Shown here: positions 1 through 39,815 of the stretch, piece by piece
How the letters are laid out: each line of letters starts with the position of its first letter
Position numbering within the stretch: the stretch's first letter is position 1
Sequence record: NC_047767.1
Direction: 5' to 3' (one strand)
Source: Staphylococcus phage vB_SscM-1
DNA length: 64,000 nucleotides
Notes under the pieces: generated by a model
The model's database searches: none
What the model was told of the DNA's origin: nothing
The model's input: the letters and a program-made list of their open reading frames with translations, nothing else
Position numbers and translations under genes: made by a program

Positions 1-300
1 TATGAGTAAGTAGGATGATAATTAAAACTTATAGGATGCATAGGATACGATAAGTTTTACTTATAGGATAAATCTTTAGGATGATTTACGATGAAATAGG
101 CTTAGGATGTTAGGATGCTTAAGTTACTATGGGATGATAAGATAAACTTATAGGATGTCTAGGATGTGATAAGTTTTACTTATGGTTATAACCATAAGTT
201 ATAGTTTGATAAGTTTTACTTATTATATAGGTTAAGGTGATAAGAAATTCAAATGATAAATTTCGAGGTATAAAAAGTATACCACCTTCAAACATGCATG
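1..300. repeat. Repeat-rich non-coding end/origin-like region (about ten TAGGATG/TAGGATA copies, three GATAAGTTTTACTTAT copies, palindrome TTATGGTTATAACCATAA)
   Basis: Direct reading of 1-300; no ORF of 60 aa or more in any frame. Confidence 0.6.
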
Positions 301-310
301 GTTGAGCCAT

Positions 311-330
311 TGTGGATAAACTGTGGATAA
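311..330. promoter_or_regulatory. Two tandem DnaA-box sequences TGTGGATAA (reverse complement of TTATCCACA)
   Basis: ccatTGTGGATAAacTGTGGATAAggt read directly. Confidence 0.45.
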
Positions 331-419
331 GGTAAAGTGTTATATTATAAGTGAAGTCAAGTTGATAACTTGATAAAGTATTTATACTTTATAACAAGAA
401 GAAACTTGATGAGTAGGTT

Positions 420-530
420 ACTCGAACTTAAGTAACCTACGAAGGCTTTGCCCTTAGATTTAGCCTTATAAATCTAAGTCGAGCTTGCTCGAAACGAAGC
501 GGTACGCTTCACAAACGATAACTTAAACTT
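420..530. other. Cluster of four consecutive stem-loops (AGGTTACT/AGTAACCT, CTTAGATTT/AAATCTAAG, GAGC/GCTC, GAAGCG/CGCTTC)
   Basis: Inverted repeats read directly in an ORF-free stretch. Confidence 0.4.
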
Positions 531-890
531 ATACATCAGACTCACATATAATATAAAGGCTACCACTATGTCCTTATTCAGGACTACATATAAGAAGTAC
601 TCAGGAGATTAATCTATAATAGGTTAGTCTCTTTTTTATTGGATTATACTCAAGTATACCAACATGATTTTGTCAAGAATAATAGGAGTAGGTTAATGCC
701 TTTCAGGCGTAAGTAACTCCTCAAATAAAAAGGTAAAATCTGTAAGTAGCAAGGGATATTTAGGTCAAGAATGTTGACTAAGTAGCGGAGTCTGATTTGC
801 TCAAGTAGCACCGTTAAATTCCGCCTACCCAGACCAGACCGCTTCTACCGGAATAAAATTCCGATTGAATAAGATTGTACACAATGTTTC

Positions 891-925
891 TGACCGTAAA
901 AGGATTGAGCACAATTAGCTTGTGC
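891..925. terminator. 12-bp perfect hairpin GATTGAGCACAA..TTGTGCTCAATC downstream of minus-strand gene 943-1203
   Basis: Perfect inverted repeat; lies 3' of the minus-strand stop codon. Confidence 0.5.
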
Positions 926-942
926 TCAATCTAATTACTTTA

Positions 943-1203
943 TTATTTAAAATAAATATCAAACCATTCTTCATATAATGATTCTGATAAATCTTTAAAT
1001 TTATCATTTTTATATTCAGTTTCTAACCAATCATAGTCTACAGTTAAAACAAATAAATATTTTTCTTCTTTGATATCTAATATTTCTCTTAATTCATTTT
1101 CTAAAATATTACATTGATAACGATTGTTTGTAGTTTGTAATAACTTGCGTACAAGTTTATTCAATCCTTCTTTACTTGCGTTTTTACTAAATTCCTTATT
1201 CAT
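943..1203 (-). CDS. Hypothetical protein (86 aa as re-called; ORF-track start at 1398 rejected)
   Basis: In-frame ATG at 1203-1201 preceded by AAAAGGA RBS; TTGACT-N17-TATCAT promoter at about 1262-1290 lies inside the longer ORF-track version. Confidence 0.45.
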   Translation of the reverse strand: MNKEFSKNASKEGLNKLVRKLLQTTNNRYQCNILENELREILDIKEEKYLFVLTVDYDWLETEYKNDKFKDLSESLYEEWFDIYFK

Positions 1204-1451
1204 ATAAATCAGTCCTTTTCTTTTTTTGTTTGCCTTGCTTACTACACTTATAATGATAAAGCATATAGGGTATAAAGTCAATAGTATTTTGAAACTTTTT
1301 TTATAAACTTTTAAAATAAGATTGCACACAATGTTTATGACCGACAATAGATTGTACACAATTCTATTTTTAAAATTTCTATGTCGTGTTTCTTCCATAT
1401 CAAACCAAAAAAAAGAATTTAAAAAAAATTAAACTTTTTTGCCTAAAAGTG

Positions 1452-1480
1452 TTTACAACGATTTCAGTATATGATATTAT
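1452..1480 (+). promoter_or_regulatory. Early sigma-A promoter TTTACA-N17-TATTAT
   Basis: Spacing counted directly; RBS AAAGGAGG follows. Confidence 0.55.
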
Positions 1481-1509
1481 TAGGATAGTTAAAGAAAGGA
1501 GGTGCGACA

Positions 1510-1818
1510 ATGAACGCGGAACGGATTGCAACGAACATTTGTTCGGTATTCGATTTTGACGGGTACAGGGACGATATAACGCCTAGCTACTATAATAGGT
1601 TAGGTCATAGTCGCTGGTATGAGTCACTAACGGTCAATGTACCTTATGGAGTGTTAAACACTGAAATACACTTCTACAAGCGTACAAGACGTTTTAAAAG
1701 CCCTACAGCGTTGGAGTGGGGAGTTGCTAGGGAGTTCAAAGGTTATGTAATATTGAGCCTATCTGGTACTGTATACATCATGAAAGATAACAGGTTACTA
1801 GGACAAAAAAAGTTTTAA
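1510..1818 (+). CDS. Hypothetical early protein (102 aa)
   Basis: ORF track; RBS AAAGGAGGTG 6 nt upstream. Confidence 0.6.
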   Translation: MNAERIATNICSVFDFDGYRDDITPSYYNRLGHSRWYESLTVNVPYGVLNTEIHFYKRTRRFKSPTALEWGVAREFKGYVILSLSGTVYIMKDNRLLGQKKF

Positions 1819-1837
1819 AAAAAGTTTATATAAAGTG

Positions 1838-1866
1838 TTGACAACCTCAGCACTTTATAGTAAACT
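1838..1866 (+). promoter_or_regulatory. Early promoter TTGACA-N17-TAAACT
   Basis: Counted directly. Confidence 0.5.
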
Positions 1867-1935
1867 AAAGATAGTTAAAGAAACAAGGCAAGTGCAAGCC
1901 AATTGCACACAATACAATATTAGGAGATGTTAAAT

Positions 1936-2232
1936 ATGAATAAAAACGAATTAAGCACAATGGAATTACATGAAATGTTAGTGGAGGCAAACGAAAACAC
2001 GAACGGAGCATATGAACACGTTCTGAAATACGAAGAAGCGGTATTTTGGTCTGATTTAGAAATGAGAGAGTTAAGTCCACAAGAAGCTATAAACATGGCA
2101 TTATATGGCAGTTATAAAACACATCATACCTATATAGGTTTAGACGGATATGGCAACCTAGCAGGCATGACGGAGGCGGAGTATAGAAAGGAATTACTGG
2201 ACTTATACGAAGAGTATTCTCAAGAATTATAA
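1936..2232 (+). CDS. Hypothetical early protein (98 aa; start moved to second ATG)
   Basis: AGGAGA then 8 nt then ATG at 1936; first ATG at 1927 sits inside the RBS. Confidence 0.6.
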   Translation: MNKNELSTMELHEMLVEANENTNGAYEHVLKYEEAVFWSDLEMRELSPQEAINMALYGSYKTHHTYIGLDGYGNLAGMTEAEYRKELLDLYEEYSQEL

Positions 2233-2309
2233 TAGTACACAATTAAATAGCGGTAGAATTCTACCGCTTCTATATTAAATTAAACACAATCTAATAGGAG
2301 ATGATTTTA

Positions 2310-2510
2310 ATGAAAAAAGAATTAGAAATTTTTACAGGTAATATTTATACAGAAAAGGATGTACACAATTTAATTGATGAGGTATCAGAAATTTTTATTA
2401 ATGAATTGGATACAATTGAAAGCGTGTATGTAATAATTAAAAAAGTTATTAAGTCTAATGGTAATCAAATAACTGTAGAAGCTTATAACATTTCAGATTT
2501 AATAAATTAG
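2310..2510 (+). CDS. Hypothetical early protein (66 aa)
   Basis: AGGAG then 9 nt then ATG at 2310. Confidence 0.5.
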   Translation: MKKELEIFTGNIYTEKDVHNLIDEVSEIFINELDTIESVYVIIKKVIKSNGNQITVEAYNISDLIN

Positions 2511-2554
2511 AATTAAATAGCACACAATCTATTAAAAAAATTATAAAAAAGGGT

Positions 2555-2857
2555 ATGATTAAAATGACAAACCAATTAACTAAAAAAGAAATTGAACAAA
2601 CTAAAGAATATATTTTAAATGCAATTGTTGAAGAAATTAATAATCAAGGCACTACATTTAATTTTATGAAAAAGGTTTATAACGATTATATGAAAAATGA
2701 ATTTGAACCAATTAATAATATAGATTTTGAAGATAGTATTGTATACAATGTATTTGATGTGGCGTATGAAGATTTATGTTATAATTATGAATTAATTTGG
2801 GAATTAGAACAACTTGGAATATTTTCAACATCTGATTTAATGGATGATTACATTTAA
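2555..2857 (+). CDS. Hypothetical early protein (100 aa; alternative start 2564)
   Basis: ORF track; weak RBS. Confidence 0.5.
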   Translation: MIKMTNQLTKKEIEQTKEYILNAIVEEINNQGTTFNFMKKVYNDYMKNEFEPINNIDFEDSIVYNVFDVAYEDLCYNYELIWELEQLGIFSTSDLMDDYI

Positions 2858-2874
2858 TAGTACACAATCTAAAA

Positions 2875-2910
2875 GAAGCGGAATCTAATTGACCGCTTCT
2901 TTATTTTTTA
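2875..2910 (+). terminator. Rho-independent terminator GAAGCGG..CCGCTTC plus T-run
   Basis: Hairpin plus TTTATTTTTT; the same hairpin family recurs at 2246-2270, 4394-4430, 5530-5552 and 7741-7775. Confidence 0.6.
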
Positions 2911-2974
2911 TTTATTAAATTGTATGCAAATCAATTGTACACAATTCAATTCTAAAAAAACTTAAAATTAGGTC

Positions 2975-3003
2975 TTGACAAAGGTTTAAAAAAATGGTAC
3001 AAT
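2975..3003 (+). promoter_or_regulatory. Early promoter TTGACA-N17-TACAAT, embedded in an AGGTCT..AGACCT stem followed by T7
   Basis: Counted directly. Confidence 0.55.
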
Positions 3004-3283
3004 GGAGTGGGAGACCTTTTTTTATATAAAAAAGATATTAGATTGTGTACAACTATATTCTCCAGGTATTAGATTGTACACAACTAGATTGTGTGCAATT
3101 TTATAAAAAAAAATTATTTATTTCTGGTCTTTCCCCCAACCTCGTCATTTGTATAGCGGAAGGGTTAGGCTGGTTACCGCTTGTCTTACTTTCTATATAT
3201 AGTATACCATGCGGTTAAATCATTGTCAACAGTTTTAACAAACTTTTTTTAAAAATATTTTTTTATTTTTTTACCTAAATCTG

Positions 3284-3312
3284 TTGACAGGTATTTTCAT
3301 TGTATGTTACAC
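3284..3312 (+). promoter_or_regulatory. Early promoter TTGACA-N17-TTACAC with TG extension, plus the conserved leader TTAACAAATCAAAGGAG
   Basis: The same promoter-leader unit recurs at about 7086-7142, 7438-7487 and 9043-9090. Confidence 0.6.
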
Positions 3313-3342
3313 TAGGTTTAACAAATCAAAGGAGTGGTCACA

Positions 3343-3669
3343 ATGAACCAATTTAAAAAAGACTTAACAGTAAAAATTTTACAGGATTACATCGATAGCC
3401 AATACTTAGGAGATTTAGATAATCAGCTTTTAGATGAAGATATCACACAAGAAGAATACAACGAAGCGGTTAGCCTAGAAGCTATTAAGAACTACACAGA
3501 AGGCGTTTTAAGCCACGCATATAGTACAGGGTACCTAGTTAGTCCAATTGACAACAGAAGGACTGTAGAAGCTAAACATATCAAATTTAGCGGTACAGAA
3601 AACATAGAAATGATGGTTATGCTTGCCAGTGCAGTATGCCATGCAATACATCAAAAAGAAATAAATTAA
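3343..3669 (+). CDS. Hypothetical early protein (108 aa)
   Basis: AGGAG then 8 nt then ATG at 3343; the ORF-track GTG start at 3334 is rejected. Confidence 0.6.
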   Translation: MNQFKKDLTVKILQDYIDSQYLGDLDNQLLDEDITQEEYNEAVSLEAIKNYTEGVLSHAYSTGYLVSPIDNRRTVEAKHIKFSGTENIEMMVMLASAVCHAIHQKEIN

Positions 3670-3742
3670 TTTCAAATAAAGGCTTGCAACGGTCAAGCCT
3701 TTATGTTATACTAAATTTAACAAATCAAAGGAGGTCGTCAAA

Positions 3743-4129
3743 ATGATGACATTAAAAAACAAAGTCGAAATTATTGTACCAAAATATGACAATGAAGGTG
3801 CTGAGATTTCAAGTCCTGTAATCAAAAGTGAAATAAATATCATGACTAAACTTGCTGGAGGTAATACAATCACTGAGGTTAAGGGTCAATGGTACTCAGA
3901 CGATACAGAAAGCGTTATGCAAGACGACAACTTGAATATTGAGTGGTACTATGACAAGGACATGGAGGACGCTCAAAGCTTTGTATTAGGCTTGTCGGTT
4001 ATTACTAGGGTATTGATTCTACAGTACCACCAGGAGGCGGTAAGCGTTAAAATTGATGGTGTGTTATACATCGTAAACGCTGACGACCTGTACAAGCTAT
4101 CAGGCACATTTGACAATTTAATGTTCTAG
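3743..4129 (+). CDS. Hypothetical early protein (128 aa)
   Basis: RBS AGGAGG then 8 nt then ATG. Confidence 0.6.
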   Translation: MMTLKNKVEIIVPKYDNEGAEISSPVIKSEINIMTKLAGGNTITEVKGQWYSDDTESVMQDDNLNIEWYYDKDMEDAQSFVLGLSVITRVLILQYHQEAVSVKIDGVLYIVNADDLYKLSGTFDNLMF

Positions 4130-4184
4130 GGATTTATTCCCTAGGCATTATATAAAAAAATTATACAATAAAGGACGGATAAAA

Positions 4185-4379
4185 ATGAAAACAGTTAGAA
4201 TTCTAAAAAATATTGAGGTTACTTTGGCACCTATTCATAATGACATAAATTGTGGACAATACTTTGACAAATATTATACAAATGTACACAAGAATATAAC
4301 AGTTACAAAAATTCATAAACAAATAGAAAAAGATGTTTATGATAGAAAATATTTAATTGATGCAATTGAAGTTAAATAG
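4185..4379 (+). CDS. Hypothetical early protein (64 aa)
   Basis: RBS AAAGGA; terminator at 4394-4430. Confidence 0.5.
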   Translation: MKTVRILKNIEVTLAPIHNDINCGQYFDKYYTNVHKNITVTKIHKQIEKDVYDRKYLIDAIEVK

Positions 4380-4998
4380 TGTACAATCTATTAGAAGCGG
4401 TTTAAATATAACCGCTTCTTTATTTTTTATTTATTACATTGTGTACAATTTAATTCTCCAGGTCTTACATTGTGTACAATTTAATTCAAAAAAAGTGTAA
4501 AATTAAGGCTTGACAAAAATCGAAAAATATGAGATAATGAAGTGACGACTATTTTTTCTATATAAAATTATTAAATTGTGTACAAGGTACTTTTTTTGGT
4601 CATCACTTTAATTATACCAAAAATGGTCTATAAAGTCAAGGATTAATTTTTACTTATTTTCAGAATAAAATTGTGTGCAATTAGATTGTGTACAATCTTA
4701 TAAAAAAAATTATTTATTTCGGCTCTTTCCCGTTACCCCTCTTGGGCAACTCTGGTAGTTATCTTTACTACACTTATAGTATATCATGGATGAAGCGGTT
4801 TGTCAACAGAAAAGATTAAAAAAGTTTTTTTAAATTTATTTATAAAAAGTGTTGACTTATGTATATTATCATGTTATTCTATATATAGAGTTAAGGAACA
4901 GCCACAAAAAAGAAAATAAAAAAACTTTTAAAAAAGGGTTGACACTTACTCTAAAGCATGATAATATAGAGTTAACAAAAGAAAAGGAGATGTTTTAA

Positions 4999-5274
4999 AT
5001 GAAAGATTACACTTACACAATTGAGGTTAAAGGCAAAACAAAAAAGAAGACAGTTTTAACATTCTTCTACAAGGGAGAAAAATTCGGTACTAGAACAAGC
5101 ACTAAACCTCCTGAAGCATTTGAAGCTTATGCAGTGGTAGAGGAGCCAGGTCAAGCACCTGGAATACTAGCGGTTGGCAAAATCAAAACATGTGAGCAGA
5201 ACACAAGAGAAATGAACAACTTCTACTCTAGAACAGGCAGACAAGAAAAAGCTTTCACAATCTTATTAAAATAA
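4999..5274 (+). CDS. Hypothetical early protein (91 aa)
   Basis: AAAAGGAGATG.. ATG at 4999; promoters at 4850 and 4936 upstream. Confidence 0.6.
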   Translation: MKDYTYTIEVKGKTKKKTVLTFFYKGEKFGTRTSTKPPEAFEAYAVVEEPGQAPGILAVGKIKTCEQNTREMNNFYSRTGRQEKAFTILLK

Positions 5275-5388
5275 AATAGTGCAGGATTCATTCCTGCACA
5301 ATCTTTTTAAAAACTTTTAAAAAAAGTATTGACACTTAAAAACAATTATGGTAATATTAAATTAACAAATCGAAAGGAATTGATAACA

Positions 5389-5526
5389 ATGAGATACGAA
5401 ATTACCGCATTAATCAATCAAGAGTTATTTATGTATGCAACATTCAACAAGCAGGAGGCAGAAGCAAAATATAGTGAATGGTGCGACCTGTACGGTCAAG
5501 ACAAAGTGAGCATGACAACAAGCTAA
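5389..5526 (+). CDS. Small hypothetical protein (45 aa); the ORF-track version starting at 5329 is rejected
   Basis: ORF-track start TTG at 5329 is the -35 box of a TTGACA-N17-TAATAT promoter; the real ATG is at 5389, after AAAGGAA. Confidence 0.45.
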   Translation: MRYEITALINQELFMYATFNKQEAEAKYSEWCDLYGQDKVSMTTS

Positions 5527-5573
5527 ACAGAAGCGGTTTAAACCGCTTCTACCTTTAAAGGAGGTGCTGGAGC

Positions 5574-5735
5574 ATGAACATGCTGGAGCATATCAGCAGG
5601 CAAGAGCATGTGCTGGAGCAGGTGCAGGCAGACCTGCAGGCGTTTCACAAGCTGGAGAAAAAAAGAAATAAAAAACTTTTAAAAAAACTGTTGACAGTAT
5701 CGAAACTATCCTGTAATATAATAATTAAGAAATAA
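5574..5735 (+). CDS. Candidate small ORF (53 aa), GC-rich CTGGAG/CTGCAG-repeat coding sequence, basic C-terminus
   Basis: RBS AAAGGAGGTG then ATG at 5574; translated by hand; its 3' end runs through the next promoter. Confidence 0.3.
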   Translation: MNMLEHISRQEHVLEQVQADLQAFHKLEKKRNKKLLKKLLTVSKLSCNIIIKK

Positions 5736-5761
5736 CAAAAAATAACTAGGAGATGTTACAA

Positions 5762-6088
5762 ATGAAATTTATCAAAACAATTGAAGGACTTTTAAACAAA
5801 GCAGAGCAAAAAGGGGAAGCGGTTTTAAATGGTCGCATGAATGAAGGCTGGGGAATGTTTGGAGAGCTGGAGGAGAAATATGCTATTGAGATTGAGGACA
5901 ATAAGCTGATTATGAGACACTGGGGAACGCAAACAATCGAAATTGATTTAAGTGTTAACAAAATCATTTCATACTATGGTGAGTCAGTGAGTGACCGTGA
6001 CAGCTTAAATACGCTTGTATATTGTTTAGGAATGGAGCCTAACTTTAGATACTTACCAAGCAAAGACTTATTCATCTATGAGGACTAG
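5762..6088 (+). CDS. Hypothetical early protein (108 aa)
   Basis: AGGAGATGTTACAAATG; second ATG used. Confidence 0.6.
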   Translation: MKFIKTIEGLLNKAEQKGEAVLNGRMNEGWGMFGELEEKYAIEIEDNKLIMRHWGTQTIEIDLSVNKIISYYGESVSDRDSLNTLVYCLGMEPNFRYLPSKDLFIYED

Positions 6089-6101
6089 AGAGGGTTAAAA
6101 A

Positions 6102-6130
6102 GTGCTGGAGCTTTCTCCAGCACATTATTT
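6102..6130 (+). terminator. Hairpin GTGCTGGAG-CTTT-CTCCAGCAC plus T-rich tail; an identical copy lies at 6803-6830
   Basis: Read directly; two identical copies. Confidence 0.55.
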
Positions 6131-6156
6131 AAAAAAATTAAATGGAGGTTTTACAA

Positions 6157-6657
6157 ATGAAAAATAATCAAGAATTTAGCAAAAACTTTTTAAGACTTTT
6201 AAAGGTTAAGAATGTGAATGATAAGAGAGTGCAGGGTTTTATAAATGCATATAATATCAAGCTGGAGGACAAAGAAGAAAGCACGCAGGGATATGTGAAC
6301 GTATTATACAGGGGTTATGATTTTGTAGTGTCTAAAGACTATGCAGGACAAACAGCCTTATATGTGAACGGTTATAACTTGAATGTGGACTATAAACATT
6401 TTAAGCACCTAGATTTTGATAATATTGTGCGGGCGTTAGAAAGGAAGAATAATAACCGTGTTGAGTACAAGAAATCAAAAACAGAGCAGTATAAAGAATT
6501 TAAGCACCGCCAGAGAACAGAAAAGCAAATGCTGGAGTATTATAAGGAGGATGTAGAAAAGCTGGAGCAGGAACTTAAAAGACTGCAGAGAGCCTGCAAG
6601 GACAGAGCGGATAAGGTAAAAAGCTATGACAGAAAAATAGCTAGATTATTTAAATAA
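6157..6657 (+). CDS. Hypothetical early protein (166 aa), C-terminal coiled-coil-like K/E-rich
   Basis: GGAGG then 8 nt then ATG at 6157. Confidence 0.6.
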   Translation: MKNNQEFSKNFLRLLKVKNVNDKRVQGFINAYNIKLEDKEESTQGYVNVLYRGYDFVVSKDYAGQTALYVNGYNLNVDYKHFKHLDFDNIVRALERKNNNRVEYKKSKTEQYKEFKHRQRTEKQMLEYYKEDVEKLEQELKRLQRACKDRADKVKSYDRKIARLFK

Positions 6658-6717
6658 AATGTTTGACAATCATAAATTAGTATGATAATATTAAATCAAA
6701 GGTTAGGAGGTGCAGGA

Positions 6718-6798
6718 ATGAAAGAACGATTATACAGATATGGACTTGTATTTTTTGGATGTGCATTCTGGTTATTATTCAGAATGATTTATGGTTGA
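6718..6798 (+). CDS. Candidate 26-aa hydrophobic peptide (MKERLYRYGLVFFGCAFWLLFRMIYG)
   Basis: RBS AGGAGG then 7 nt then ATG; TTGACA-N17-TAATAT promoter at 6665-6693; ends in terminator 6803-6830. Confidence 0.35.
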   Translation: MKERLYRYGLVFFGCAFWLLFRMIYG

Positions 6799-6857
6799 AA
6801 AAGTGCTGGAGCTTTCTCCAGCACAACTTTAAAAAAACTTATTAGGAGATGTTGAAA

Positions 6858-7085
6858 ATGAACATGAACGAAACTATTGAGAGCCTGAGGGAAGAGTTTT
6901 TACTACTTGATAATTATTACCCTCAGGGAGTGGCGTTAGACGTTATGGAGCGTATTGTAGCATGTGGTAAGGGTAAGGAAGCGGTGGACTGTATTGTTCA
7001 GCATATGCCTGTTGAAGCACCTGCAAGTGATATTGACCTATTCATTTATGAATGCATTCATCACTTTATAAATTATTATGAATAA
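6858..7085 (+). CDS. Hypothetical early protein (75 aa)
   Basis: AGGAGATGTTGAAAATG; second ATG used. Confidence 0.55.
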   Translation: MNMNETIESLREEFLLLDNYYPQGVALDVMERIVACGKGKEAVDCIVQHMPVEAPASDIDLFIYECIHHFINYYE

Positions 7086-7151
7086 AAGTGTTGACAGTTA
7101 TTTTTAACCTATGTTACACTTGTATTAACAAATCAAAAGGAGATGTTTTCA

Positions 7152-7430
7152 ATGAAAAACACAATTAAATCAGTTATTGAGGTATTAGAGAATAAAGGCT
7201 ACACAGTGGAGCAGGCAGAAGAAAACAGAATGCTGGAGGTTATAAGTCCTGCAGGTGTTGTGGAAGATATTACACCTAGCTTTGTTAATGCTGGAGCAGT
7301 AGAGGACTTACCAATTAGTGAATTCATCAATGAAGACACTAGAAACATATGTTTTGAGTTTTACGGTTGGACTTTAAACTTCCCAACAGCTAAAGAGTTA
7401 ATAACAGAAATTGAAAAAGTTTTTAAATAA
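7152..7430 (+). CDS. Hypothetical early protein (92 aa)
   Basis: Conserved leader plus AGGAGATGTTTTCAATG. Confidence 0.6.
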   Translation: MKNTIKSVIEVLENKGYTVEQAEENRMLEVISPAGVVEDITPSFVNAGAVEDLPISEFINEDTRNICFEFYGWTLNFPTAKELITEIEKVFK

Positions 7431-7496
7431 ATGTTTGACAGAAATATTTAACCTATGATACAATGAATTTAACAAAACAAAAGGAGATTGATAAAA

Positions 7497-7760
7497 ATGA
7501 TTATTAAAGAAATAGTACAAGGTTTCGTAGCAAATGAATTCGACAGAATGGAAGACTTGAAAGAGTCAGCGGTTAGCTGGTTAGAACTAACAGAAGATAG
7601 CTACAAGGAAGAGCAGAAGCACAACCAACAAGATTACAGCAGGAACATTAAAGCCTGCAGGGAAGCAATGCAGGAGGTCGAAAACACAGAAGACCTGCAG
7701 GTAATCAATGAGTGGTTAAGCTTTGCTGGAGTACAATATGAGGTCGAAGCGGGTTACTAA
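7497..7760 (+). CDS. Hypothetical early protein (87 aa)
   Basis: AGGAGATTGATAAAAATG; the TTG start of the ORF track is rejected. Confidence 0.6.
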   Translation: MIIKEIVQGFVANEFDRMEDLKESAVSWLELTEDSYKEEQKHNQQDYSRNIKACREAMQEVENTEDLQVINEWLSFAGVQYEVEAGY

Positions 7761-7789
7761 CCCGCTTCTAAATTAAAGGAGGTAATCAC

Positions 7790-8077
7790 ATGTTTACTAA
7801 AAAAGAAAACTACTCAAAATTACTACAGGTGCAAGAAATAAAAGCCGATACAACTTTTGAAGATACTACAACATTTTGGAACGTGGCAACATTTGAAAAC
7901 TCAACAGATGAATTAGAAGATAGCTATATCACAATTGAGGTATGGTCTGATGAAAGCAACTCAATAAAGATAATAGAATCAGACGACACAGACCATCAAG
8001 AGATTAGCGACAAGCTACCTAAAAATGTACTAAACCACTTACACAAATTAGTATATGCAGAACTAAATAAATTATAA
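7790..8077 (+). CDS. Hypothetical early protein (95 aa), acidic
   Basis: RBS AAAGGAGGTAATCAC ATG. Confidence 0.6.
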   Translation: MFTKKENYSKLLQVQEIKADTTFEDTTTFWNVATFENSTDELEDSYITIEVWSDESNSIKIIESDDTDHQEISDKLPKNVLNHLHKLVYAELNKL

Positions 8078-8092
8078 AAAGGAGGTAATCAC

Positions 8093-8275
8093 ATGTATGG
8101 TATTTGGAACGCAATAGAAGACGTGCAGGAGGTAAGAGACTACAGCAGGGAGCAGGTCATAGAGTTTGCTAATATTGAGCGTGTAACAGTCACAGGCATA
8201 AGAGAAGAAATCAAGACACTAGAAGAAGCGGAAGAGTTTTTACTAACACTAGGCTATATAGTAGAGGAGATGTAG
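8093..8275 (+). CDS. Hypothetical early protein (60 aa)
   Basis: Identical RBS AAAGGAGGTAATCAC ATG. Confidence 0.55.
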   Translation: MYGIWNAIEDVQEVRDYSREQVIEFANIERVTVTGIREEIKTLEEAEEFLLTLGYIVEEM

Positions 8276-8278
8276 ACA

Positions 8279-8443
8279 ATGACAATTAAAGAACTTATAG
8301 AGCAGTTGCAGGCAGTAGAGGACAAAGACCTACAGATATACGCATGTAATGAGCAGGGAGACAATTTACCTATTAACTCAGTATCATTGTATGATGAAGA
8401 GGACAAGCACAGCAACACAAACCCATTAGGACTAAACTATTAA
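8279..8443 (+). CDS. Small hypothetical protein (54 aa), translationally coupled
   Basis: ATG 3 nt after the upstream TAG; GAGGAG 11 nt upstream; translated by hand. Confidence 0.4.
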   Translation: MTIKELIEQLQAVEDKDLQIYACNEQGDNLPINSVSLYDEEDKHSNTNPLGLNY

Positions 8444-8456
8444 GGAGATGTTTATA

Positions 8457-8840
8457 ATGAACAAAGAACAGTATAACTATTTATTTAATAAGGTAACAGT
8501 ATTCAAGGATATGGAGGACTACAACAACAAGACAATTGACGGAGCAGAGCAATTAGACGAAGCACTGCAGGAAGGCTTTATACAAGACCTCACAAGAGGT
8601 GTATATAATGGAGCAACGGACACATTCACACCTAACACATTAAATGCTAAAGAACTTGTATTAGCAGTACAACAATATTTATATGAAACTGATTGGTTAT
8701 CTACTCTATACACTCAACATGAGGAAGATGACGACCTAGAAACTTTTGAGCAGTTAACAAGGTTTGATATGCTAGAGGACTATCTCAACTGTTATAGTGT
8801 GTTTACAATCGGTAACAGAATATATGCAGATATAAGCTAA
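8457..8840 (+). CDS. Hypothetical early protein (127 aa)
   Basis: AGGAGATGTTTATAATG; second ATG used. Confidence 0.6.
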   Translation: MNKEQYNYLFNKVTVFKDMEDYNNKTIDGAEQLDEALQEGFIQDLTRGVYNGATDTFTPNTLNAKELVLAVQQYLYETDWLSTLYTQHEEDDDLETFEQLTRFDMLEDYLNCYSVFTIGNRIYADIS

Positions 8841-9099
8841 TATAAGGCTCCTAGAGAGCCTTTAGATATTTTAGGTATAAAACTATTAAGAGAGGAATGG
8901 TGAGCGTATATGAGCGTACTAGAATCGGTAGACAATGCAATAAAGGAATTTAATCAATTACCTTATGAAGAGAAGAAAAACAAAGAAATCACGATTGATA
9001 AATTAATTGAAAAAAATCTAAAAAAACTTTAATAAAACCTTTGACAGATATTTTAGTTGTATGTTATACTTGTATTAACAAATCAAAGGAGTGGTAAAA

Positions 9100-9285
9100 A
9101 TGAAAGATACAATCAAAATGTACCAAGAAAGAATCAAATACTTCACGAAAGAGATTCACAGAATGCTAGACCTAATCGACAACGCAGAAATTCACGAACT
9201 GAATGATATCCTAGCAAGTGTGGACGACCTAAGATTCTTAAGAGCAGATGCTGAAAGAATGCTAGAATTTTATGAAGCAAGATAA
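9100..9285 (+). CDS. Hypothetical early protein (61 aa)
   Basis: Conserved promoter-leader; AGGAG then 8 nt then ATG. Confidence 0.55.
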   Translation: MKDTIKMYQERIKYFTKEIHRMLDLIDNAEIHELNDILASVDDLRFLRADAERMLEFYEAR

Positions 9286-9292
9286 AATGAGT

Positions 9293-9320
9293 AAGGGAAT
9301 TAATTCCCTTGCTTTTTTAT
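9293..9320 (+). terminator. Terminator AAGGGAATTAATTCCCTT plus T6
   Basis: Perfect palindrome followed by GCTTTTTT. Confidence 0.65.
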
Positions 9321-9483
9321 TTGTCTTGAATTAACTTGCACACAATGTAATCTATTCTAATTAGATTGTACACAATATAACCCACCCCGTGCGTTTTCAA
9401 CACATTGTGCACAACCTAATATCAGCTACGGGTGCTACCTGAGGTTCATATTTTTCGTGCTTAAATATAATTTTAAAAAATTT

Positions 9484-9660
9484 CCTAAATAAGGTAAATA
9501 TAAAAGTCAACATCCATACCCCCTTATTTAAAGTCAACATTACTAGCCCTTAACCCTCCCCCTATAATAAAAAATTAGGAAAGGGTAATTTATAAAAGTC
9601 AACATTTATAGTATATCTATAAAAGTCAACATCTACAACCCTTTCCTAAAAGTCAACACT
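9484..9660. repeat. Five direct iterons (T)AAAGTCAACA(T/C) at the early plus / minus-block strand switch
   Basis: Copies at about 9504, 9530, 9596, 9626 and 9651; no -10 box at promoter spacing, so they are not simple promoters. Confidence 0.55.
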
Positions 9661-10690
9661 ACTTATTATATACCTCCCTATATCTACACTTAATAAGTAC
9701 AGGGTCTACATAGGTATATTGGTTAAGGCTCCCTATGATATGATTGAATGTGCTCCTACGTGCATCCACCTCTATATAAGTTATATCATTGTCCTTACAA
9801 TACTGTTTCTTTATTATGTCCGATTCCTTAGTAATTTTATGGCTCATATATCCTGTTACTTCTTGATAGTGTTGCATACCATGTACTTCTACTGCTGTAT
9901 GAGATTCAGGTAAGTAGAAATCAAAACGTTTCAATCCTAGGTCTTTAAACTTGTACTCTCTTATATAAGGTATATTAAGTATATCTAGATAGGCTTGTGT
10001 GACCCTCTCACCGAAAGATGAATAAGATTTAGTACAAGTACACTTATAGGTATCACTTGTTAAGTCTAGCACCCTTATACTTTTTTTAGTATGGCAATTA
10101 GGGCAAGTTGTTGATATTCTACTTCTAGATGAGTATCTATAGTTGAAGAGGTCTTCTCTATTAGTTACATATTGGTGTATATGCTTATGGTGGTAAAGCA
10201 ACTTACTCTGCGGTACTGTGCTGTGTGGTACGTAGCTATCTCCTTTTATTGCTTTGAGTTTTTGATTAGAGATTATACCATATACTTCTTCCCTTATATT
10301 ATAGACTAAATAAAAGTACGTATCTGCTTCCTTTTTAACTGCTAGTATCTCACACCCTTTTACCTTATCTCCTACTTTATAGTCTTGCATCGTGTACTTC
10401 TTATTTTGTGTTGTGATATAGTTAAGCTTAACTCTCTTTAAGTTATTGACTTGTTGTGTGAACGTTTTATTGTTATACGTAATATCTATAAGCACGGTCT
10501 TAGACTGACTAGGACTATACTTAAGGTGTAAGTGACCTTCTATATCATGATACTTAAATGGTACGGTATGGTTCGTAGCTTTCCAATATATAGACTTGCC
10601 ACGTCTTGGTAATGTAGATAGGTCTATAAAGTTAGTTATACCTGTCTTAGTCTCTGAATAATAAATGTTATTGTTATTATAGTATTTCAT
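9659..10690 (-). CDS. Free-standing homing-endonuclease-like protein with a Vsr/DUF559-like nuclease C-terminus (343 aa)
   Basis: C-terminal RFDFYLPES..VEVHG..H..K..D motif shared with 43287-44219 and 60856-61788; RBS AAAGGAG; promoter 10715-10743. Confidence 0.55.
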   Translation of the reverse strand: MKYYNNNNIYYSETKTGITNFIDLSTLPRRGKSIYWKATNHTVPFKYHDIEGHLHLKYSPSQSKTVLIDITYNNKTFTQQVNNLKRVKLNYITTQNKKYTMQDYKVGDKVKGCEILAVKKEADTYFYLVYNIREEVYGIISNQKLKAIKGDSYVPHSTVPQSKLLYHHKHIHQYVTNREDLFNYRYSSRSRISTTCPNCHTKKSIRVLDLTSDTYKCTCTKSYSSFGERVTQAYLDILNIPYIREYKFKDLGLKRFDFYLPESHTAVEVHGMQHYQEVTGYMSHKITKESDIIKKQYCKDNDITYIEVDARRSTFNHIIGSLNQYTYVDPVLIKCRYREVYNK

Positions 10691-10714
10691 TAAAAAACAT
10701 CTCCTTTTTTTCTT

Positions 10715-10743
10715 ATTATAACATAAGAGTTTGGAGATGTCAA
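10715..10743 (-). promoter_or_regulatory. Consensus promoter TTGACA-N17-TATAAT (minus strand); a twin with the same TTGACATCTCCAAAC core lies at 11323-11351
   Basis: Counted on the reverse complement. Confidence 0.6.
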
Positions 10744-10899
10744 TAGGTTAAAGTATTTCTATTATAAGTGATATCGTACAAAGGATGATAAGTATAGCTA
10801 GTAATACAATACCTAAGACTCTATCTAAGTCGTCTCTGGCATCTACTATCATAAATACACTGAATATGAGAAGGAAGGCAAGTATAAAAGGCATTATCA

Positions 10900-11286
10900 T
10901 TACTTATCCTCCCCTAGTAAGTGTGGATTCTCAAATTTGTTGCCTATGATTTCTACATCAGTATCCCCTTGTTCATTAACGACTAGTTTCCAACTTTGAC
11001 CATTTTGCCATGCAGGATACATTAGCCAATATCCATCAATACGTCTCTTCACAACGCCAATTGCTTTATATCCCTCCGATATAGCTGTAACAATATCTCC
11101 CTCATATATCTCCTTACCGTTCTTATCTAATAGCCCAGTTGATTGTAAGAGTTCGATATCTTCGAAATTATCCACTTCGGTATATTTTCCATTCACCCAT
11201 ACAATCTCTTTATACTTATAATTAATTTCTTGAACATCAACAATCTTCTTGTGTATGTTTAAATATGCTCTAAACTTCGGTATCAT
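10900..11286 (-). CDS. YopX-family protein (128 aa)
   Basis: N-terminal MIPKFRAY.., C-terminal IIGNKFENPHLL; paralogous to 12165-12575 and 13313-13672. Confidence 0.65.
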   Translation of the reverse strand: MIPKFRAYLNIHKKIVDVQEINYKYKEIVWVNGKYTEVDNFEDIELLQSTGLLDKNGKEIYEGDIVTAISEGYKAIGVVKRRIDGYWLMYPAWQNGQSWKLVVNEQGDTDVEIIGNKFENPHLLGEDK

Positions 11287-12164: not shown

Positions 12165-12575
12165 TTACTTGTCCTCCTCTAGTAAGTGTTCATCCTGATA
12201 AACATTTCCTAGTATTTCAATTTCCAATGTATTTGTATAACTTTTAAAATAAAAATCAGTTAAAGGTATATTTTTAGAGATATGTAATCCTTCAATATAA
12301 AATCCACCTTTTACTTTTTTAACTATACCTCTTAAATAAATTGTTCCTTCTAACGTGCGTACATCGACAATTTGAGATTCAAATACTTCATTACCATTCT
12401 TATCTAATAGTCCAGTCGATTGTAGTAGTTCGATATCTGAAAAATGGATAAAATCTCCCATATCTTCTTCATCAAATACTTCTTTAGTCCATACACCCTC
12501 TGCATCATAATTAATTCCATGAACATTTAACATTTCTTTTTCCCATTTATCCCATGCTCTAAACTTCTGTATCAT
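12165..12575 (-). CDS. YopX-family protein (136 aa)
   Basis: MIQKFRAWDK.., ..ILGNVYQDEHLLE. Confidence 0.7.
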   Translation of the reverse strand: MIQKFRAWDKWEKEMLNVHGINYDAEGVWTKEVFDEEDMGDFIHFSDIELLQSTGLLDKNGNEVFESQIVDVRTLEGTIYLRGIVKKVKGGFYIEGLHISKNIPLTDFYFKSYTNTLEIEILGNVYQDEHLLEEDK

Positions 12576-13136: not shown

Positions 13137-13310
13137 TTACACCCTTTCCATTTTTTTATTCATATAAGGTAAACTTTTATAGAAATCTCTAGCTTGATGC
13201 TTGTAATAAAATCTTTTACCTTGTGACTTTCCTTCATCGTCTACCCACAATACATTCCATTGGTTCATATCTAATGTGTCTGTAATATCTTGGAATATCT
13301 TTCTAATCAT
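13137..13310 (-). CDS. Small hypothetical protein (57 aa; not in the ORF track)
   Basis: GGAGAG RBS; translated by hand; stop overlaps the HNH start region. Confidence 0.35.
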   Translation of the reverse strand: MIRKIFQDITDTLDMNQWNVLWVDDEGKSQGKRFYYKHQARDFYKSLPYMNKKMERV

Positions 13311-13312
13311 AA

Positions 13313-13672
13313 TTAATTACTCTCCTTTAGTAAATTGTGGTTCTCGAACTTGTTTCCTACTTTCTCTAGTATAGGGCTGTAATCATATAAGGATAACCCA
13401 TCTACTTTCCATTCTCCACTAGGTTCTTGGTATACGTAACTATAGTAGGTTCCTAACTTATCTTCGAACCGTAAAATATCTCCATCATATATTAAACTAC
13501 CATCTCTGTCTCTCATGTTAGTACATTCTATAAAGTCTACATCTTCAAAACTAAGTAATTTACTATTTCCGTACCTCCAATAGTTAGATACTATAGCCTT
13601 ATTTTTAAAGTCTATAAAGGAGATGTCTACAATCTCCTTATTTACCTTATCCCATGCCTTATAGTTTTTCAT
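13313..13672 (-). CDS. YopX-family protein (119 aa)
   Basis: MKNYKAWDK.., ..VGNKFENHNLL. Confidence 0.65.
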   Translation of the reverse strand: MKNYKAWDKVNKEIVDISFIDFKNKAIVSNYWRYGNSKLLSFEDVDFIECTNMRDRDGSLIYDGDILRFEDKLGTYYSYVYQEPSGEWKVDGLSLYDYSPILEKVGNKFENHNLLKESN

Positions 13673-36365: not shown

Positions 36366-37732
36366 TCCATAAAACTCCTTTTTTATTATATGTATAACCA
36401 CGGACGTCAACGTGGCTTTAAACTTCGGTTTCCATCATCGTAATAACTTCCACCTCAATACTCCGCAGAGTAGACATAGCTATGTAAAGTATATAACTAG
36501 CATCTCTTCCTAGGAGAACACGCTTGCGTTATATACTCAATGAAACTCTACCCTCATTCGAGGAAACAGCAAACCGATTCGTCAATCGCACATGTTAATT
36601 CTCAAGTTTCATTTATGTATAACTCCCTCTAACCTGTAACTTGGGAGCGTGGTAATTTACCATACGTACAAATTCCAGTTTTACATATTCAGGTACTAGT
36701 AAATATTTCAACTAGTTTGTGAAGTACGCTACCTTGAACTCATAAACTCCAATAGCTAAATAAGTTGTTTTTACTGAGGACATTTTTATTATGTATATAC
36801 CCTAGTGGTTAACTAGGGAGTTACTAAGGAACCACCTTAGCAAGTGGATATCTACAAACGTTGGCTAACTCGATACCTGCTACGAGTACTCCTAATATTT
36901 AAAAATAGCGTTAGGCACGCCCACGACCTTCGTAACGTTTTGTTTAGTAAGCTTGTTTATTCTATCAAATAAGTTTATAAATTGTACTTGGTCTGATACA
37001 ATAGTTTACTTACCTATGTATCCCCCTGGGCAATTAAACGCAGGAGGCAGTTCTTATGCCTATCACTTATAAGAAAACCTAAAACCATTATAAGCTGGAC
37101 TTTTGAAGATTGGTTTATTTTGTTCACGCATACGTAAAAACTTACCACTATCCATGGTTGATAAATTCTTACGCCCAGTATCATAGGGTTAGTTGAACAG
37201 GGACAAGTTATGGAACTAACTTGCGATAAAAGAGTTTTGTAGTTTATGTATGGCTAGTTATTTTTTATGTAGGACGAACTAGCAAAACTACATATCATCA
37301 TATAACCAGTAACTTCAGATGATAATAAAGTTTTTTTACAACTGGTTCATTTATGTATTGCCTACTCCTCGTAAGGTGGTAAGCTGAATTAATATATTAT
37401 GTATACTAGGATTGTACCAGTAAACTTCCTAGTGTTATCTTCCCATCTTGCACAGGAGACCTCGAGATTATCAGTCCCTTTAAATAGTTTTTTTCCTATG
37501 CCTATTACTAGATAGTAAGGATTGATTAATTCCAAACGTTACCCTCAATCTTTGGGTTAGCTCACAATATTTGAGTATGACACAGACTGGTTCGTGGATG
37601 ATTACCTCAATTCTATATATGTAACCTTGCACCTTGAACCCATAAACTCAGGTGCACCTAAAGCCGGCTAAGGAGTTTGGGTGACTTGGGGACATAGCAT
37701 TACCTCTTTTTTTGTTAGGACTATGTATATAG

Positions 37733-37797
37733 AAGTGCAAGGGATTCGAACCCTTAGACTTAGCCTGCCTCCGGACACGCCGACTAGACACTTCTAT
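37733..37797 (-). other. tRNA-like minihelix: perfect T-arm (AAGGG-TTCGAAT-CCCTT) and 7-bp acceptor stem, but no D or anticodon arms
   Basis: Reverse complement TAGAAGTGTCTAGTCGGCGTGTCCGGAGGCAGGCTAAGTCTAAGGGTTCGAATCCCTTGCACTTCT folded by hand. Confidence 0.35.
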
Positions 37798-38833
37798 TAT
37801 GATACCTACACTCAACTTAGTGCTTACACTTAAGATAGCCTAAGGTTTACAAATGTTTAGTTTATATGCATTTCAGCATTTGGCACGGTATCCTACCTTT
37901 TCCCTTCATTTTCTTAAGACAAATGCTATAACCTCACGATTATAGAGACTGTGTTTAAGCACACAGTTAAGCTACTATTGTAATTTCATTATACCATATT
38001 ACTTGTTGTTTGTCAACTTCTTTTTTGTATTAAAAAAGTACACCTAGGAAACCTATACCATAATCTTATAGTGTACTGTGGTTTTTTATCTTAGGCTCGA
38101 AGCAACTCGGTACCTAAGAAAGGAAAATATGTATTTCTAGCAGGAAGTTTAGAAAGGATGTTGATATACCAATGTATAACGCTTTAATTAGAGAGGAGTT
38201 AACTTCCTGCTAGACATTATCAGTAAAGGAGTTTTAAGTCTGATAATATGTTTATGTTATTAAAAGAGGAATGATTCTGTTGTATTCTGATTAATACAAC
38301 TAAATATCCAAGCATAGCCCTTCTCAGGGGGAACTACCCAGTAAGAAACAGTATTAGACGACCTAGTGTAAGAAGATTCTATACGGTTGCAAGTCGTAGT
38401 CCATCTTTTACAGCAAAGAGCAATATAGGGGTTAGGTCTTTTACTAACCAACTTTCACACGATATGAAGAATTATAGTAAATTTCTATTTTAGCCTACAT
38501 ATCAAATTTGTTTTGTAATGTGGATTTGTGCTACTTGTACAGGTAACTTTCATTATCAAAACTATTTCTAGTCTCCAACCACATCAGAACTTTAAAGCGT
38601 AGTTTAAAAAGTTTCCGCTAAGAACTCCTTAAACGATTATTCCTGACTGTTACCTTGTCCTATATCCCTTACAGAGTAGTACCAAGCATTCCCCTCGTAT
38701 TAAAAAATACTCTAAGGTAAATGTCTGAGTTCTCACGCAGATTTATTACCTGTGACAATCTTGTACGTTACTCCTATCAGAGAGTTATTCCGTCACTATG
38801 CTTAGATATTTAGTTGTATTATCTTGTATATAT

Positions 38834-39304: not shown

Positions 39305-39342
39305 TTTTATCATATCCTTTTCTTGTTTTATTTGTTAATTGT

Positions 39343-39640
39343 ATTATATCATAAATAAAAGTATAAGTCAACAAGTATTTAATATTTTTATTCCTGAGTA
39401 AACTTATAAATTTAATTTATAACTGTATTATACTATATCCTGAGTAATAAGTCAACAGATTATACTAAATTTTTTATATTCTGAGTAAATTAAAAAGTAA
39501 AATCCTTTTATATCAAGGGTTTCAAGCTCTAAATTTTATGTTTAGAAAATAAGGAGTACTCCTAATATATAATACTATATCTATTATAAATAAATAAAAG
39601 AACTTAAATATAAATATATAAATAATAGAGTTAAAGTCAA
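39343..39640 (-). promoter_or_regulatory. Three tandem minus-strand promoters (TTGACT-N17-TATAAT at 39343-39371 and 39427-39455; TTGACT-N16-TATATT at 39613-39640)
   Basis: Each counted on the reverse complement. Confidence 0.55.
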
Positions 39641-39790
39641 CAACTTAATTATTACTAAGTTATCTGAATATTCAATTAACTTTATGTTTAGAAAATAAGA
39701 AACCTTCTAATATATATTACTATATATTTATAATTAAATAAAAGAACTTAAATATAAATATATAAATAATAGAGTTGGAAAAATCAGCAA
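39530..39790. repeat. Two copies of a roughly 110-bp AT-rich direct repeat (..TTATGTTTAGAAAATAAG..AAATAAAAGAACTTAAATATAAATATATAAATAATAGAGTT)
   Basis: Aligned by eye, about 85 % identical; only two copies and no spacer structure, so not CRISPR. Confidence 0.55.
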
Positions 39791-39815
39791 CAAAAAAGTG
39801 ACTTACAAAAAGTCA
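39787..39815 (-). terminator. Terminator AAGTGACTT..AAGTCACTT plus T-run (minus strand)
   Basis: Reverse complement read directly. Confidence 0.55.

Follow-up and report, generated by a model that had tools for sequence, protein, structure and literature searches.

What is the role of five short direct repeats that are packed between two convergent genes of a Staphylococcus phage? They lie in the window studied here, by which we mean the whole stretch of 64,000 nucleotides analysed from Staphylococcus phage vB_SscM-1 (sequence record NC_047767.1). A first, sequence-only reading saw in them either a replication origin or a regulator-binding array. Here, we place the repeats relative to the end of the long terminal repeat (LTR) and compare them with the same region in related phages. 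We conclude that the five copies are probably a landmark of the genome-end junction and not a replication origin.

BLAST assigns the window to Sciuriunavirus (Twortvirinae, Herelleviridae), whose members infect Mammaliicoccus and Staphylococcus sciuri. It matches ZCSS1, UHP46, MSShimriz1 and the PG-2021 isolates best, with 78-94% identity over the array region. In ZCSS1, the plus-strand genes upstream of the array include 'terminal repeat-encoded' proteins, and the first minus-strand gene past the array is annotated as BofL.

Five repeats in a gap between convergent genes

A motif scan of the 64-kb window finds five exact plus-strand copies of AAAGTCAACA, in good agreement with the five direct repeats noticed before. 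Named R1 to R5 from left to right, they occupy positions 9503-9512 (R1, with TGTTGACTTT on the minus strand), 9530-9539 (R2), 9595-9604 (R3), 9622-9631 (R4) and 9649-9658 (R5, which adjoins the stop codon of a homing endonuclease ORF). Their start-to-start spacing is 27/65/27/27, with gaps of 17, 55, 17 and 17 bp, and these values replace the spacings of 26, 66, 30 and 25 bp given earlier. Five exact 10-mers inside 156 bp are far beyond chance. Elsewhere in the 64 kb the exact motif occurs only twice, at 39633 on the plus strand and at 43117 on the minus strand. When up to one mismatch is allowed, 20 matches stand against an expected 9.5 ± 3.1, a number that 0 shuffles reached.

The extended repeat unit is TATAAAAGTCAACAT, or (R)ATGTTGACTTTTA(T/A) in its minus-strand form. 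On that strand the motif reads TGTTGACTTTTA, a conserved unit of 12-13 nt with the appearance of an extended -35 element aimed into the LTR. TTGACT, to which the sequence-only reading had drawn attention, is present on the minus strand in 5/5 copies. The C-rich tracts reported beside the repeats are found as well, namely CCCCC at 9519-9523 and CCCTCCCCC at 9554-9562, both on the plus strand in the spacers flanking R2; they are kept in relatives, with variable sequence.

The array is embedded in a gap of 373 bp (9286-9658) between convergent genes. The strand-switch gap of about 370 bp had thus been described correctly, while the supposed start of the first minus-strand gene at its right border is in fact a gene end, since the ORF at 9659-10690 ends at 9659. 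From left to right, the region comprises a terminator, three LTR-type palindromes, a cut block, a stretch that is AT-rich by eye, and R1. Then follow a C-tract, R2, more C-tracts, a minus-strand U-tract, a 12-bp perfect inverted repeat around R3 and R4, and R5. The terminator (9289-9314, plus strand) is an intrinsic one with an 11-pair stem and a subsequent T-run; it belongs to the last plus-strand LTR (early) gene, ORF 9091-9285, and is nearly invariant in relatives. The three TTGYRYRCAA sites of the earlier description are palindrome-like and located at 9336-9345, 9366-9375 and 9405-9414. They close a series of 19 sites that is restricted to the LTR: the window carries 20 such sites, where about one is expected, and 19 of them fall within 875-9405.

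On the minus strand, part of the array is folded into a long hairpin with a U-tract (9564-9649). Its outer stem pairs 9638-9649 with 9575-9586, R4 and R3 are placed in the inner stem/loop, and the U-tract covers 9564-9574. The outer arms of 12 nt are 100% complementary and invariant in relatives, including those that lack R3. Minus-strand RNA of 9555-9665 folds at -33.9 kcal/mol (z = -4.9), a stability that 0/200 shuffles equalled, and is followed by U-rich sequence. This hairpin, interleaved with the array, probably terminates the leftward operon. In phage K a comparable hairpin is seen by eye to the right of all four copies. An Rfam search of 9200-9800 gave nothing above noise. A plus-strand TATAAT at 9563-9568 was considered as a promoter and dropped, as it is not conserved in MSShimriz1 and PG-2021_33.

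The neighbours of the array are a 64-aa LTR ORF, the homing endonuclease, BofL and YopX. The endonuclease gene (9659-10690, minus strand) is free-standing and matches phrog_9084 of PHROGs with E = 1e-54; the C-terminal domain of its product is similar to the endonuclease encoded within the TerL gene (43287-44219). The BofL homologue (10748-10900, minus strand) has 50 aa and is 88% identical to the protein annotated as BofL in ZCSS1. Searches of Pfam returned no match for the endonuclease ORF, BofL or the last LTR ORF. The sequence-only reading had given weight to the presence of an endonuclease gene beside the repeats. The gene is indeed there, but it is absent in ZCSS1, where the array adjoins BofL. 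Its closeness to the array is therefore incidental, and the gene is an insertion outside the element. TerL is located at 42.2-45.6 kb of the window, in which no TerS gene was identified.

The right end of the long terminal repeat

In K-like phages, 12-bp inverted repeats, TAAGTACCTGGG and CCCAGGTACTTA, separate the LTR from unique DNA (PMC6022877, PMC4111496). The K record annotates the LTR end at 8486, inside CCCAGGTACTTA, with the junction GGTCTACC/CAGGTACTTA (a slash marks the boundary here and below), and the LTR start as ...TAAGTACCTG/GGAATTCTTTTACC. When the window is aligned to the annotated ends of K and Twort and to those of OPT-SC01 and StAP1, they coincide at GGGTGCTACC/TGAGGTTCAT, which predicts a cut after 9439 (± 1). 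In the alignment to K, this point reads GCTACC/TGAGG. It is located in the block 9394-9470 (plus strand), which is the best-conserved intergenic block and about 100% identical in four Sciuriunavirus genomes.

The length of the repeat in UHP46 leads to the same point. Both ZCSS1 and UHP46 exhibit a K-like start, ...GAGCCTG/GGATTTTCGTTCTCTCTCCCACTC, at position 27, and in UHP46 TGAGGTTCAT begins at 12,883. From the K-homologous start at 27 to an end at 12,882, the repeat measures 12,856 bp, which agrees within 1 bp with the direct terminal repeat of 12,857 bp given by PhageTerm (PMC11861072). Because of the homology to the K and Twort ends and of the repeat length in UHP46, we set the right end of the LTR at 9439, and the array therefore starts 64-65 bp outside the LTR. 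R1 is the copy closest to the LTR and the last copy is 219 bp from the predicted cut, so that the whole array (9503-9658) falls within about 250 bp outside the terminal-repeat boundary. Its position just outside the right LTR boundary is well established.

This position directly outside the boundary had been missed in the sequence-only reading. A sequence similar to TAAGTACCTGGG of K, TAAGTACAGGG at 9694-9709, was also considered as the LTR boundary and was rejected: its orientation and side are wrong, and the alignment as well as the UHP46 length give 9439. The left LTR boundary was not located within the window, the first 685 bases of which (1-685) match no phage record.

Conservation in Twortvirinae and beyond

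In four Sciuriunavirus genomes, 40/40 core columns are invariant as compared with 60/87 spacer columns (Fisher p = 1e-5). The repeat cores are under purifying selection and the spacers are drifting. Of the two roles first proposed, the array behaves as a selected protein-binding array would, while the origin part finds little support. ZCSS1 and UHP46 carry five copies each, MSShimriz1 and PG-2021_33 four each; the 27-bp unit of R3 is missing in the two latter.

Across Twortvirinae, the motif occurs as an array in four genera and as a single copy in a fifth (Sepunavirus), although the flanks are unalignable. K (Kayvirus) has four copies at 8531-8628, the first of them at +45 from the LTR end, with a spacing of 26/20/42. 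Twort (Twortvirus), whose L-LTR is annotated as 1..9201, likewise has four copies (9245-9336), beginning at +44 with a spacing of 31/20/33. StAP1 (Silviavirus) has one copy at +45 from an inferred end and three more about 275 bp further, four in total. Four copies are also found in OPT-SC01, a phage with a K-like junction whose record gives no genus, and one copy was seen in BE07 (Sepunavirus). Orientation and offset of the motif are thus conserved while the flanks diverge, and the larger offset in the window, as compared with 44-45 bp in K, Twort and Silviavirus, results from an 18-bp insertion. The sequence-only reading had itself named a lack of conservation in relatives as the finding that would speak against a functional array; what we observe is the opposite.

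A BLAST search of the array region with a permissive E-value limit of 10 matched 172 Staphylococcus phage records, not all of which are necessarily arrays. Among the matches listed, the Kayvirus records long enough for both LTRs, including B1 and JA1, show a single match place each. The B1 and JA1 records contain both LTR copies (PMC6022877), and the annotations of K and Twort put the array after the L-LTR. Judged by the listed Kayvirus records and these annotations, the array is present once per virion genome, outside the repeat.

The feature is not universal in Herelleviridae, since no comparable array is seen at the 3,125-bp boundary of Listeria phage A511. Among plasmids, BLAST gave marginal matches only and no similar array, and a scan of genome contigs gave 112 scattered matches in unrelated taxa and 0 in Staphylococcaceae. 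In these searches the array has no host or plasmid counterpart. A scan of viral contigs for two spaced copies yielded scattered, mostly single matches among the matches listed.

The left outer flank of the LTR bears repeats as well, but these are not conserved. K carries a tandem unit of 35-37 bp there, and ZCSS1 about 10 tandem ACACATAGACA units. The K-type unit is variable in copy number in Kayvirus 812 and absent from one 812 mutant (PMC6445280).

An array of the same architecture is present in SPO1. Five copies of CCTTCATTCAAAACTAT at 13,233-13,364 start 48 bp past the terminal redundancy, which we take to be 13,185 bp long, in agreement with the end of the AF031901 match. CampHawk has five copies, Adastra and SP8 have two each. 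As in the window, the ATTCAAAACTA array of SPO1 and the Okuboviruses is preceded by G/C tracts at the redundancy end, a conserved cut-site block and a spacer of about 48 bp, and then consists of 2-5 direct repeats at 22-33 bp spacing. It shares the orientation towards the repeat, with TTGAAT on the minus strand in place of the TTGACT of the window. The motif itself is a different one (6/8 positions are common with TGTTGACT), and in SPO1 both flanking genes are on the minus strand, whereas the window genes are convergent. The position just outside the right LTR boundary is the one positional feature kept from SPO1 to Twort. Arrays are hence present in the SPO1- and K-like phages to whose origin regions the sequence-only reading had pointed for comparison, but their position is tied to the LTR end, and the K origin has been proposed elsewhere.

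A proposed junction array as the best explanation

The position relative to the LTR end, the conservation of motif, orientation and offset across Twortvirinae, the SPO1-type architectural counterpart and the selection on the cores are the observations from which a functional reading has to start. They suggest that the repeats are a cis-acting protein-binding array of the junction between LTR and unique DNA, which would act in LTR-end cutting or packaging. We assign this function a rough probability of 0.42.

In a concatemer, the order would be the right end of unique DNA, the outer repeats, the LTR, the cut (9439), a spacer of 45-65 bp, the AAAGTCAACA array, and the left end of unique DNA. Each virion genome would then carry one array, just inside unique DNA by the left LTR copy. 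A sequence-specific protein may bind the array; the most plausible candidate is a phage factor for packaging or concatemer processing, for example the terminase small subunit. The resulting complex could help to position or permit the site-specific cutting by which the right LTR end arises, or the accompanying LTR duplication. Kayvirus 812 is packaged from the left LTR end, and its right end is ejected first (PMC12886913). With packaging from left to right, the array is situated just beyond the terminal cut, and a terminase moving rightward would reach the array 45-65 bp after meeting the cut site of the right end. We favour a phage-encoded ligand over sigma-A because the motif changes with the lineage and host sigma-A specificity does not. 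The host RNA polymerase holoenzyme is a candidate ligand too, as TGTTGACTT matches an extended sigma-A -35.

Several points count against a junction array. The DNA on its side of the cut stays out of the head being filled, in contrast to lambda cosB at initiation. To our knowledge, a terminase small subunit has been assigned to none of the phages of this family. Copy number is loose, with one copy seen in BE07 and two in some Okuboviruses, and the conserved position could in part come from conserved gene order in a short intergenic region. The -35 match and the minus-strand RNA snc004 of K fit a transcriptional role just as well. Finally, one study saw no sharp right end in Kayvirus reads (PMC3896407).

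Comparison with known systems

Two known arrangements, the SRL repeats of T7 and lambda cosB, resemble the proposed junction array, each in part. T7 has a terminal repeat of 160 bp and, just outside it in non-coding DNA, short direct repeats (SRL/SRR) with about 12 CCTAAAG units at 175-340. These are 7-bp units at 13-bp spacing, compared with a core of 10-15 bp at 20-65 bp spacing here, and the terminal repeat of 160 bp contrasts with one of about 9-13 kb; the packaging direction is opposite. We know of no proof of function for SRL/SRR either. Within the T7 array lies A0 (at 224), annotated as a leftward promoter for the E. coli host polymerase, which points into the repeat and has TTGACT as its -35 (AAGTCAAC, 253-260). 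This keeps a polymerase-based reading of our array alive.

Lambda cosB consists of several spaced R sites for the terminase small subunit, about 50-200 bp from the cosN cut. The window likewise shows several copies of one motif near a cut, at 64-65 to 219 bp from the predicted position. The R sites, however, are on the DNA that is packaged next, at initiation, whereas the window array is past the terminal right-end cut.

A third candidate for comparison is the injection-stop (iss) region of T5, a repeat-rich non-coding region at 9194-10856 with the LTR end at 10,139 (10.1101/866236). It shares with the window that it is rich in repeats, non-coding, placed at the LTR end and better conserved than the neighbouring genes. 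Unlike the window array, it has inverted repeats and paired DnaA boxes as its main elements and is largely inside the LTR. It is also part of the LTR copy that is first to enter the cell, while the window array is beside the copy that enters last (PMC12886913).

Alternative readings

The copies might instead be -35 elements that recruit host sigma-A RNA polymerase holoenzyme beside the LTR end. They could then give weak leftward junction transcription, in antisense orientation to the last early gene, or form a polymerase sink or roadblock where the early and middle units converge. We consider this unlikely, though worth keeping in view. The minus strand of 5/5 copies reads TGTTGACTT, and the same 9-mer is the -35 of the genuine promoters 39371, 39455, 39640 and 43119, where it is written TGTTGACT(T) and is joined to a good -10 at 16-17 bp; promoter 43119 drives the homing endonuclease inside the split TerL gene. 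Many of the 31 good promoters of the window carry a 'TG' directly before the hexamer. The array copies lack the second half of such a promoter. With a -10 hexamer defined by A at position 2, T at position 6, at least 5/6 matches and a distance of 16-18 bp from the -35, none of the five copies has one: the slots read TAGGAA, GATGTT, CCTAAT, AATGTT and GATGTT, and the promoter scan lists 0/5. This bears out the earlier statement that there is no -10 at promoter spacing and no promoter stack. Some copies outside this genus do possess an acceptable -10, for example TTGACT-16-CATAAT at the K copy nearest the LTR and one perfect case in StAP1, so that -10 quality is inconsistent between genera.

The conserved unit TGTTGACTTTTA is, moreover, longer than a -35. 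The SPO1 array reads TTTTGAAT, as against TGTTGACA in the adjacent SPO1 early promoter (by eye), and the -35 preferred by Bacillus sigma-A is no different. The motif is absent from the promoter tables in the accessible parts of two Kayvirus RNA-seq studies. As to transcripts, Finstrlova et al. describe for K a bidirectional terminator at 8370 and the minus-strand RNA 'snc004' (8370-8665), which spans the junction (PMC9241854). In the window a terminator hairpin is found inside the array, hence array RNA may be read-through.

An operator set for a phage-encoded transcription regulator that binds TGTTGACTTTTA appears distinctly unlikely. The regulator would also act at a few promoters with an extended -35, and the junction array would insulate early (LTR) from middle transcription or be a titration site between the two. 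An invariant core with drifting spacers is consistent with such operators, the extended motif recurs at promoters 39640 and 43119, and the array of K is at the border of temporal classes, between the early LTR genes and middle TU13 (PMC9241854). Yet no candidate regulator was identified, and the SPO1 array is located between two same-strand genes, so that an insulator of convergent transcription does not generalise. A fixed offset of 44-48 bp from the LTR cut in four genera would likewise be unexpected for operators. Both a sigma-A polymerase array and a regulator operator set would be compatible with a role at the junction.

A broader proposal, to which we give little credence, takes the array as a junction signal shared by direct-terminal-repeat phages: -35-like elements aimed into the terminal repeat would recruit polymerase, and leftward transcription or stalling at the junction would prime strand-displacement copying of the LTR or recruit terminase to make the end cut. 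It would unite T7 A0, the minus-strand RNA of K, the TTGACT/TTGAAT arrays of Twortvirinae and SPO1, and the 'origin' idea.

An iteron-type origin, at which an initiator binds the five repeats and melts the AT-rich 9461-9500, is very improbable. Four to five direct repeats do stand beside a 40-bp stretch that is very AT-rich by eye, as at plasmid and phage iteron origins, and the array is conserved among relatives; but the spacing is irregular and without helical phasing (27/65/27/27 in the window, 26/20/42 in K, 31/20/33 in Twort), no Rep/initiator gene is adjacent, the gap contains no DnaA box (the sole perfect ones in the window are at 311-330), and the site is between convergent, not divergent, genes and is tied to the LTR cut instead of replication genes. 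The searches of plasmids and Staphylococcaceae genomes yielded no similar array, copy number drops to 1-2 in some relatives, and Finstrlova et al. propose as the K origin the untranscribed AT-rich gap gp191/gp190 (PMC9241854), all of which speaks against the origin first proposed for this locus.

Significance of the array

Earlier descriptions exist for the tandem repeat of the left flank and for the 12-bp inverted repeats at the boundary. For the array of the right flank, our literature search found no description, and neither motif string appeared alongside 'Kayvirus' or 'iteron'; an earlier mention is possible. SPO1/Twort/K and T5-type phages make exact terminal repeats of 8-13 kb from concatemers, and for K-like phages we know of no defined cis-acting signal besides the short boundary inverted repeats. 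The conserved array, with its fixed distance from the right-end cut, provides a specific candidate signal that can be mutated, and it is found in the many Kayvirus genomes used for phage therapy. It can also serve as an annotation marker: going upstream from the first AAGTCAACA copy, one reaches the right LTR end after about 45-65 bp. If the array is needed for end formation, it would provide a handle on packaging specificity, on correct genome ends in assemblies and on phage engineering.

A hairpin within the repeat array

On the minus strand, window 9564-9649 can fold into a long hairpin followed by a U-tract (-33.9 kcal/mol, z = -4.9). It is formed by a 12-bp perfect inverted repeat and encloses R3 and R4, two of the five direct repeats of the array, and its stem arms are unchanged in relatives, even in those that do not have R3. 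Transcription of the leftward operon probably terminates at this hairpin.

Repeats beside the terminal repeats of other phages

In SPO1 (NC_011421), five direct repeats of CCTTCATTCAAAACTAT are located at 13,233-13,364 of the record (1734-1865 of the piece L132), the first of them 48 bp beyond the terminal redundancy; among the relatives of SPO1, CampHawk carries five copies and Adastra and SP8 two each. An array of CCTAAAG repeats adjoins the terminal repeat of T7 (NC_001604, L138) at 175-340, and A0, the leftward E. coli promoter annotated at 224, falls within it. Several of the T7 units read CCTAAAGTCAAC, which is near the motif of the vB_SscM-1 array, and the -35 element of A0 is TTGACT (AAGTCAAC at 253-260). 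This likeness of unit and promoter to the vB_SscM-1 motif may be a coincidence. The Sciuriunavirus ZCSS1 shows approximately ten tandem copies of ACACATAGACA directly outside its left LTR boundary (L005 14650-14744 and L004 1-26, at the record ends), at the position where Kayvirus has its variable 35-bp tandem repeat.

Homing endonucleases and other loci of the window

The window holds two related homing endonuclease genes. The one at 9659-10690 is free-standing, lies between the repeat array and the BofL homologue, and is missing from ZCSS1; the other, at 43287-44219, has its own promoter at 43119 and is located inside the split terminase large-subunit gene, whose C-terminal exon occupies 44272-45567. 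A paralogous-looking gene pair is found in the first leftward operon: the gene at 10900-11286 matches the Pfam family YopX (PF09643, 6e-18), and that at 12165-12575 is similar to it as judged by eye.

The non-coding stretch at 39330-39800 comprises three strong minus-strand sigma-A promoters, two of them (at 39371 and 39455) of the form TTGACT-17-TATAAT and the third at 39640, as well as a unit of approximately 95 bp that is repeated twice. Its position calls to mind the highly expressed lncRNA locus at 37,679-38,832 reported by Finstrlova (PMC9241854), which is named lncRNA2 in other Kayvirus studies.

Left end and early region

The left LTR boundary of vB_SscM-1 was looked for within the window and was not found, and window 1-685 has no match to any record of the phage collection. 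Window 1-250 contains a dense TAGGATG array (seven copies at 11-166) and three copies of GATAAGTTTTACTTAT. At 311-330 follow two perfect DnaA boxes, TGTGGATAA, separated by 2 bp, which are the sole perfect ones in the 64 kb. No such boxes occur at the loci examined in ZCSS1, K, Twort and SPO1. The injection-stop region of T5 carries paired DnaA boxes (preprint 10.1101/866236).

TTGYRYRCAA occurs 20 times in the window, compared with approximately one expected site, and 19 of these sites lie within the LTR/early region (875-9414), the remaining one at 33014. They are frequently paired, the members approximately 30 bp apart, and their most complete form, AGATTGTRCACAAT, is a palindrome. The LTR of ZCSS1 contains 16 such sites and that of K none. 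The TTGYRYRCAA sites look like operators at which a regulator dedicated to the early region would bind.
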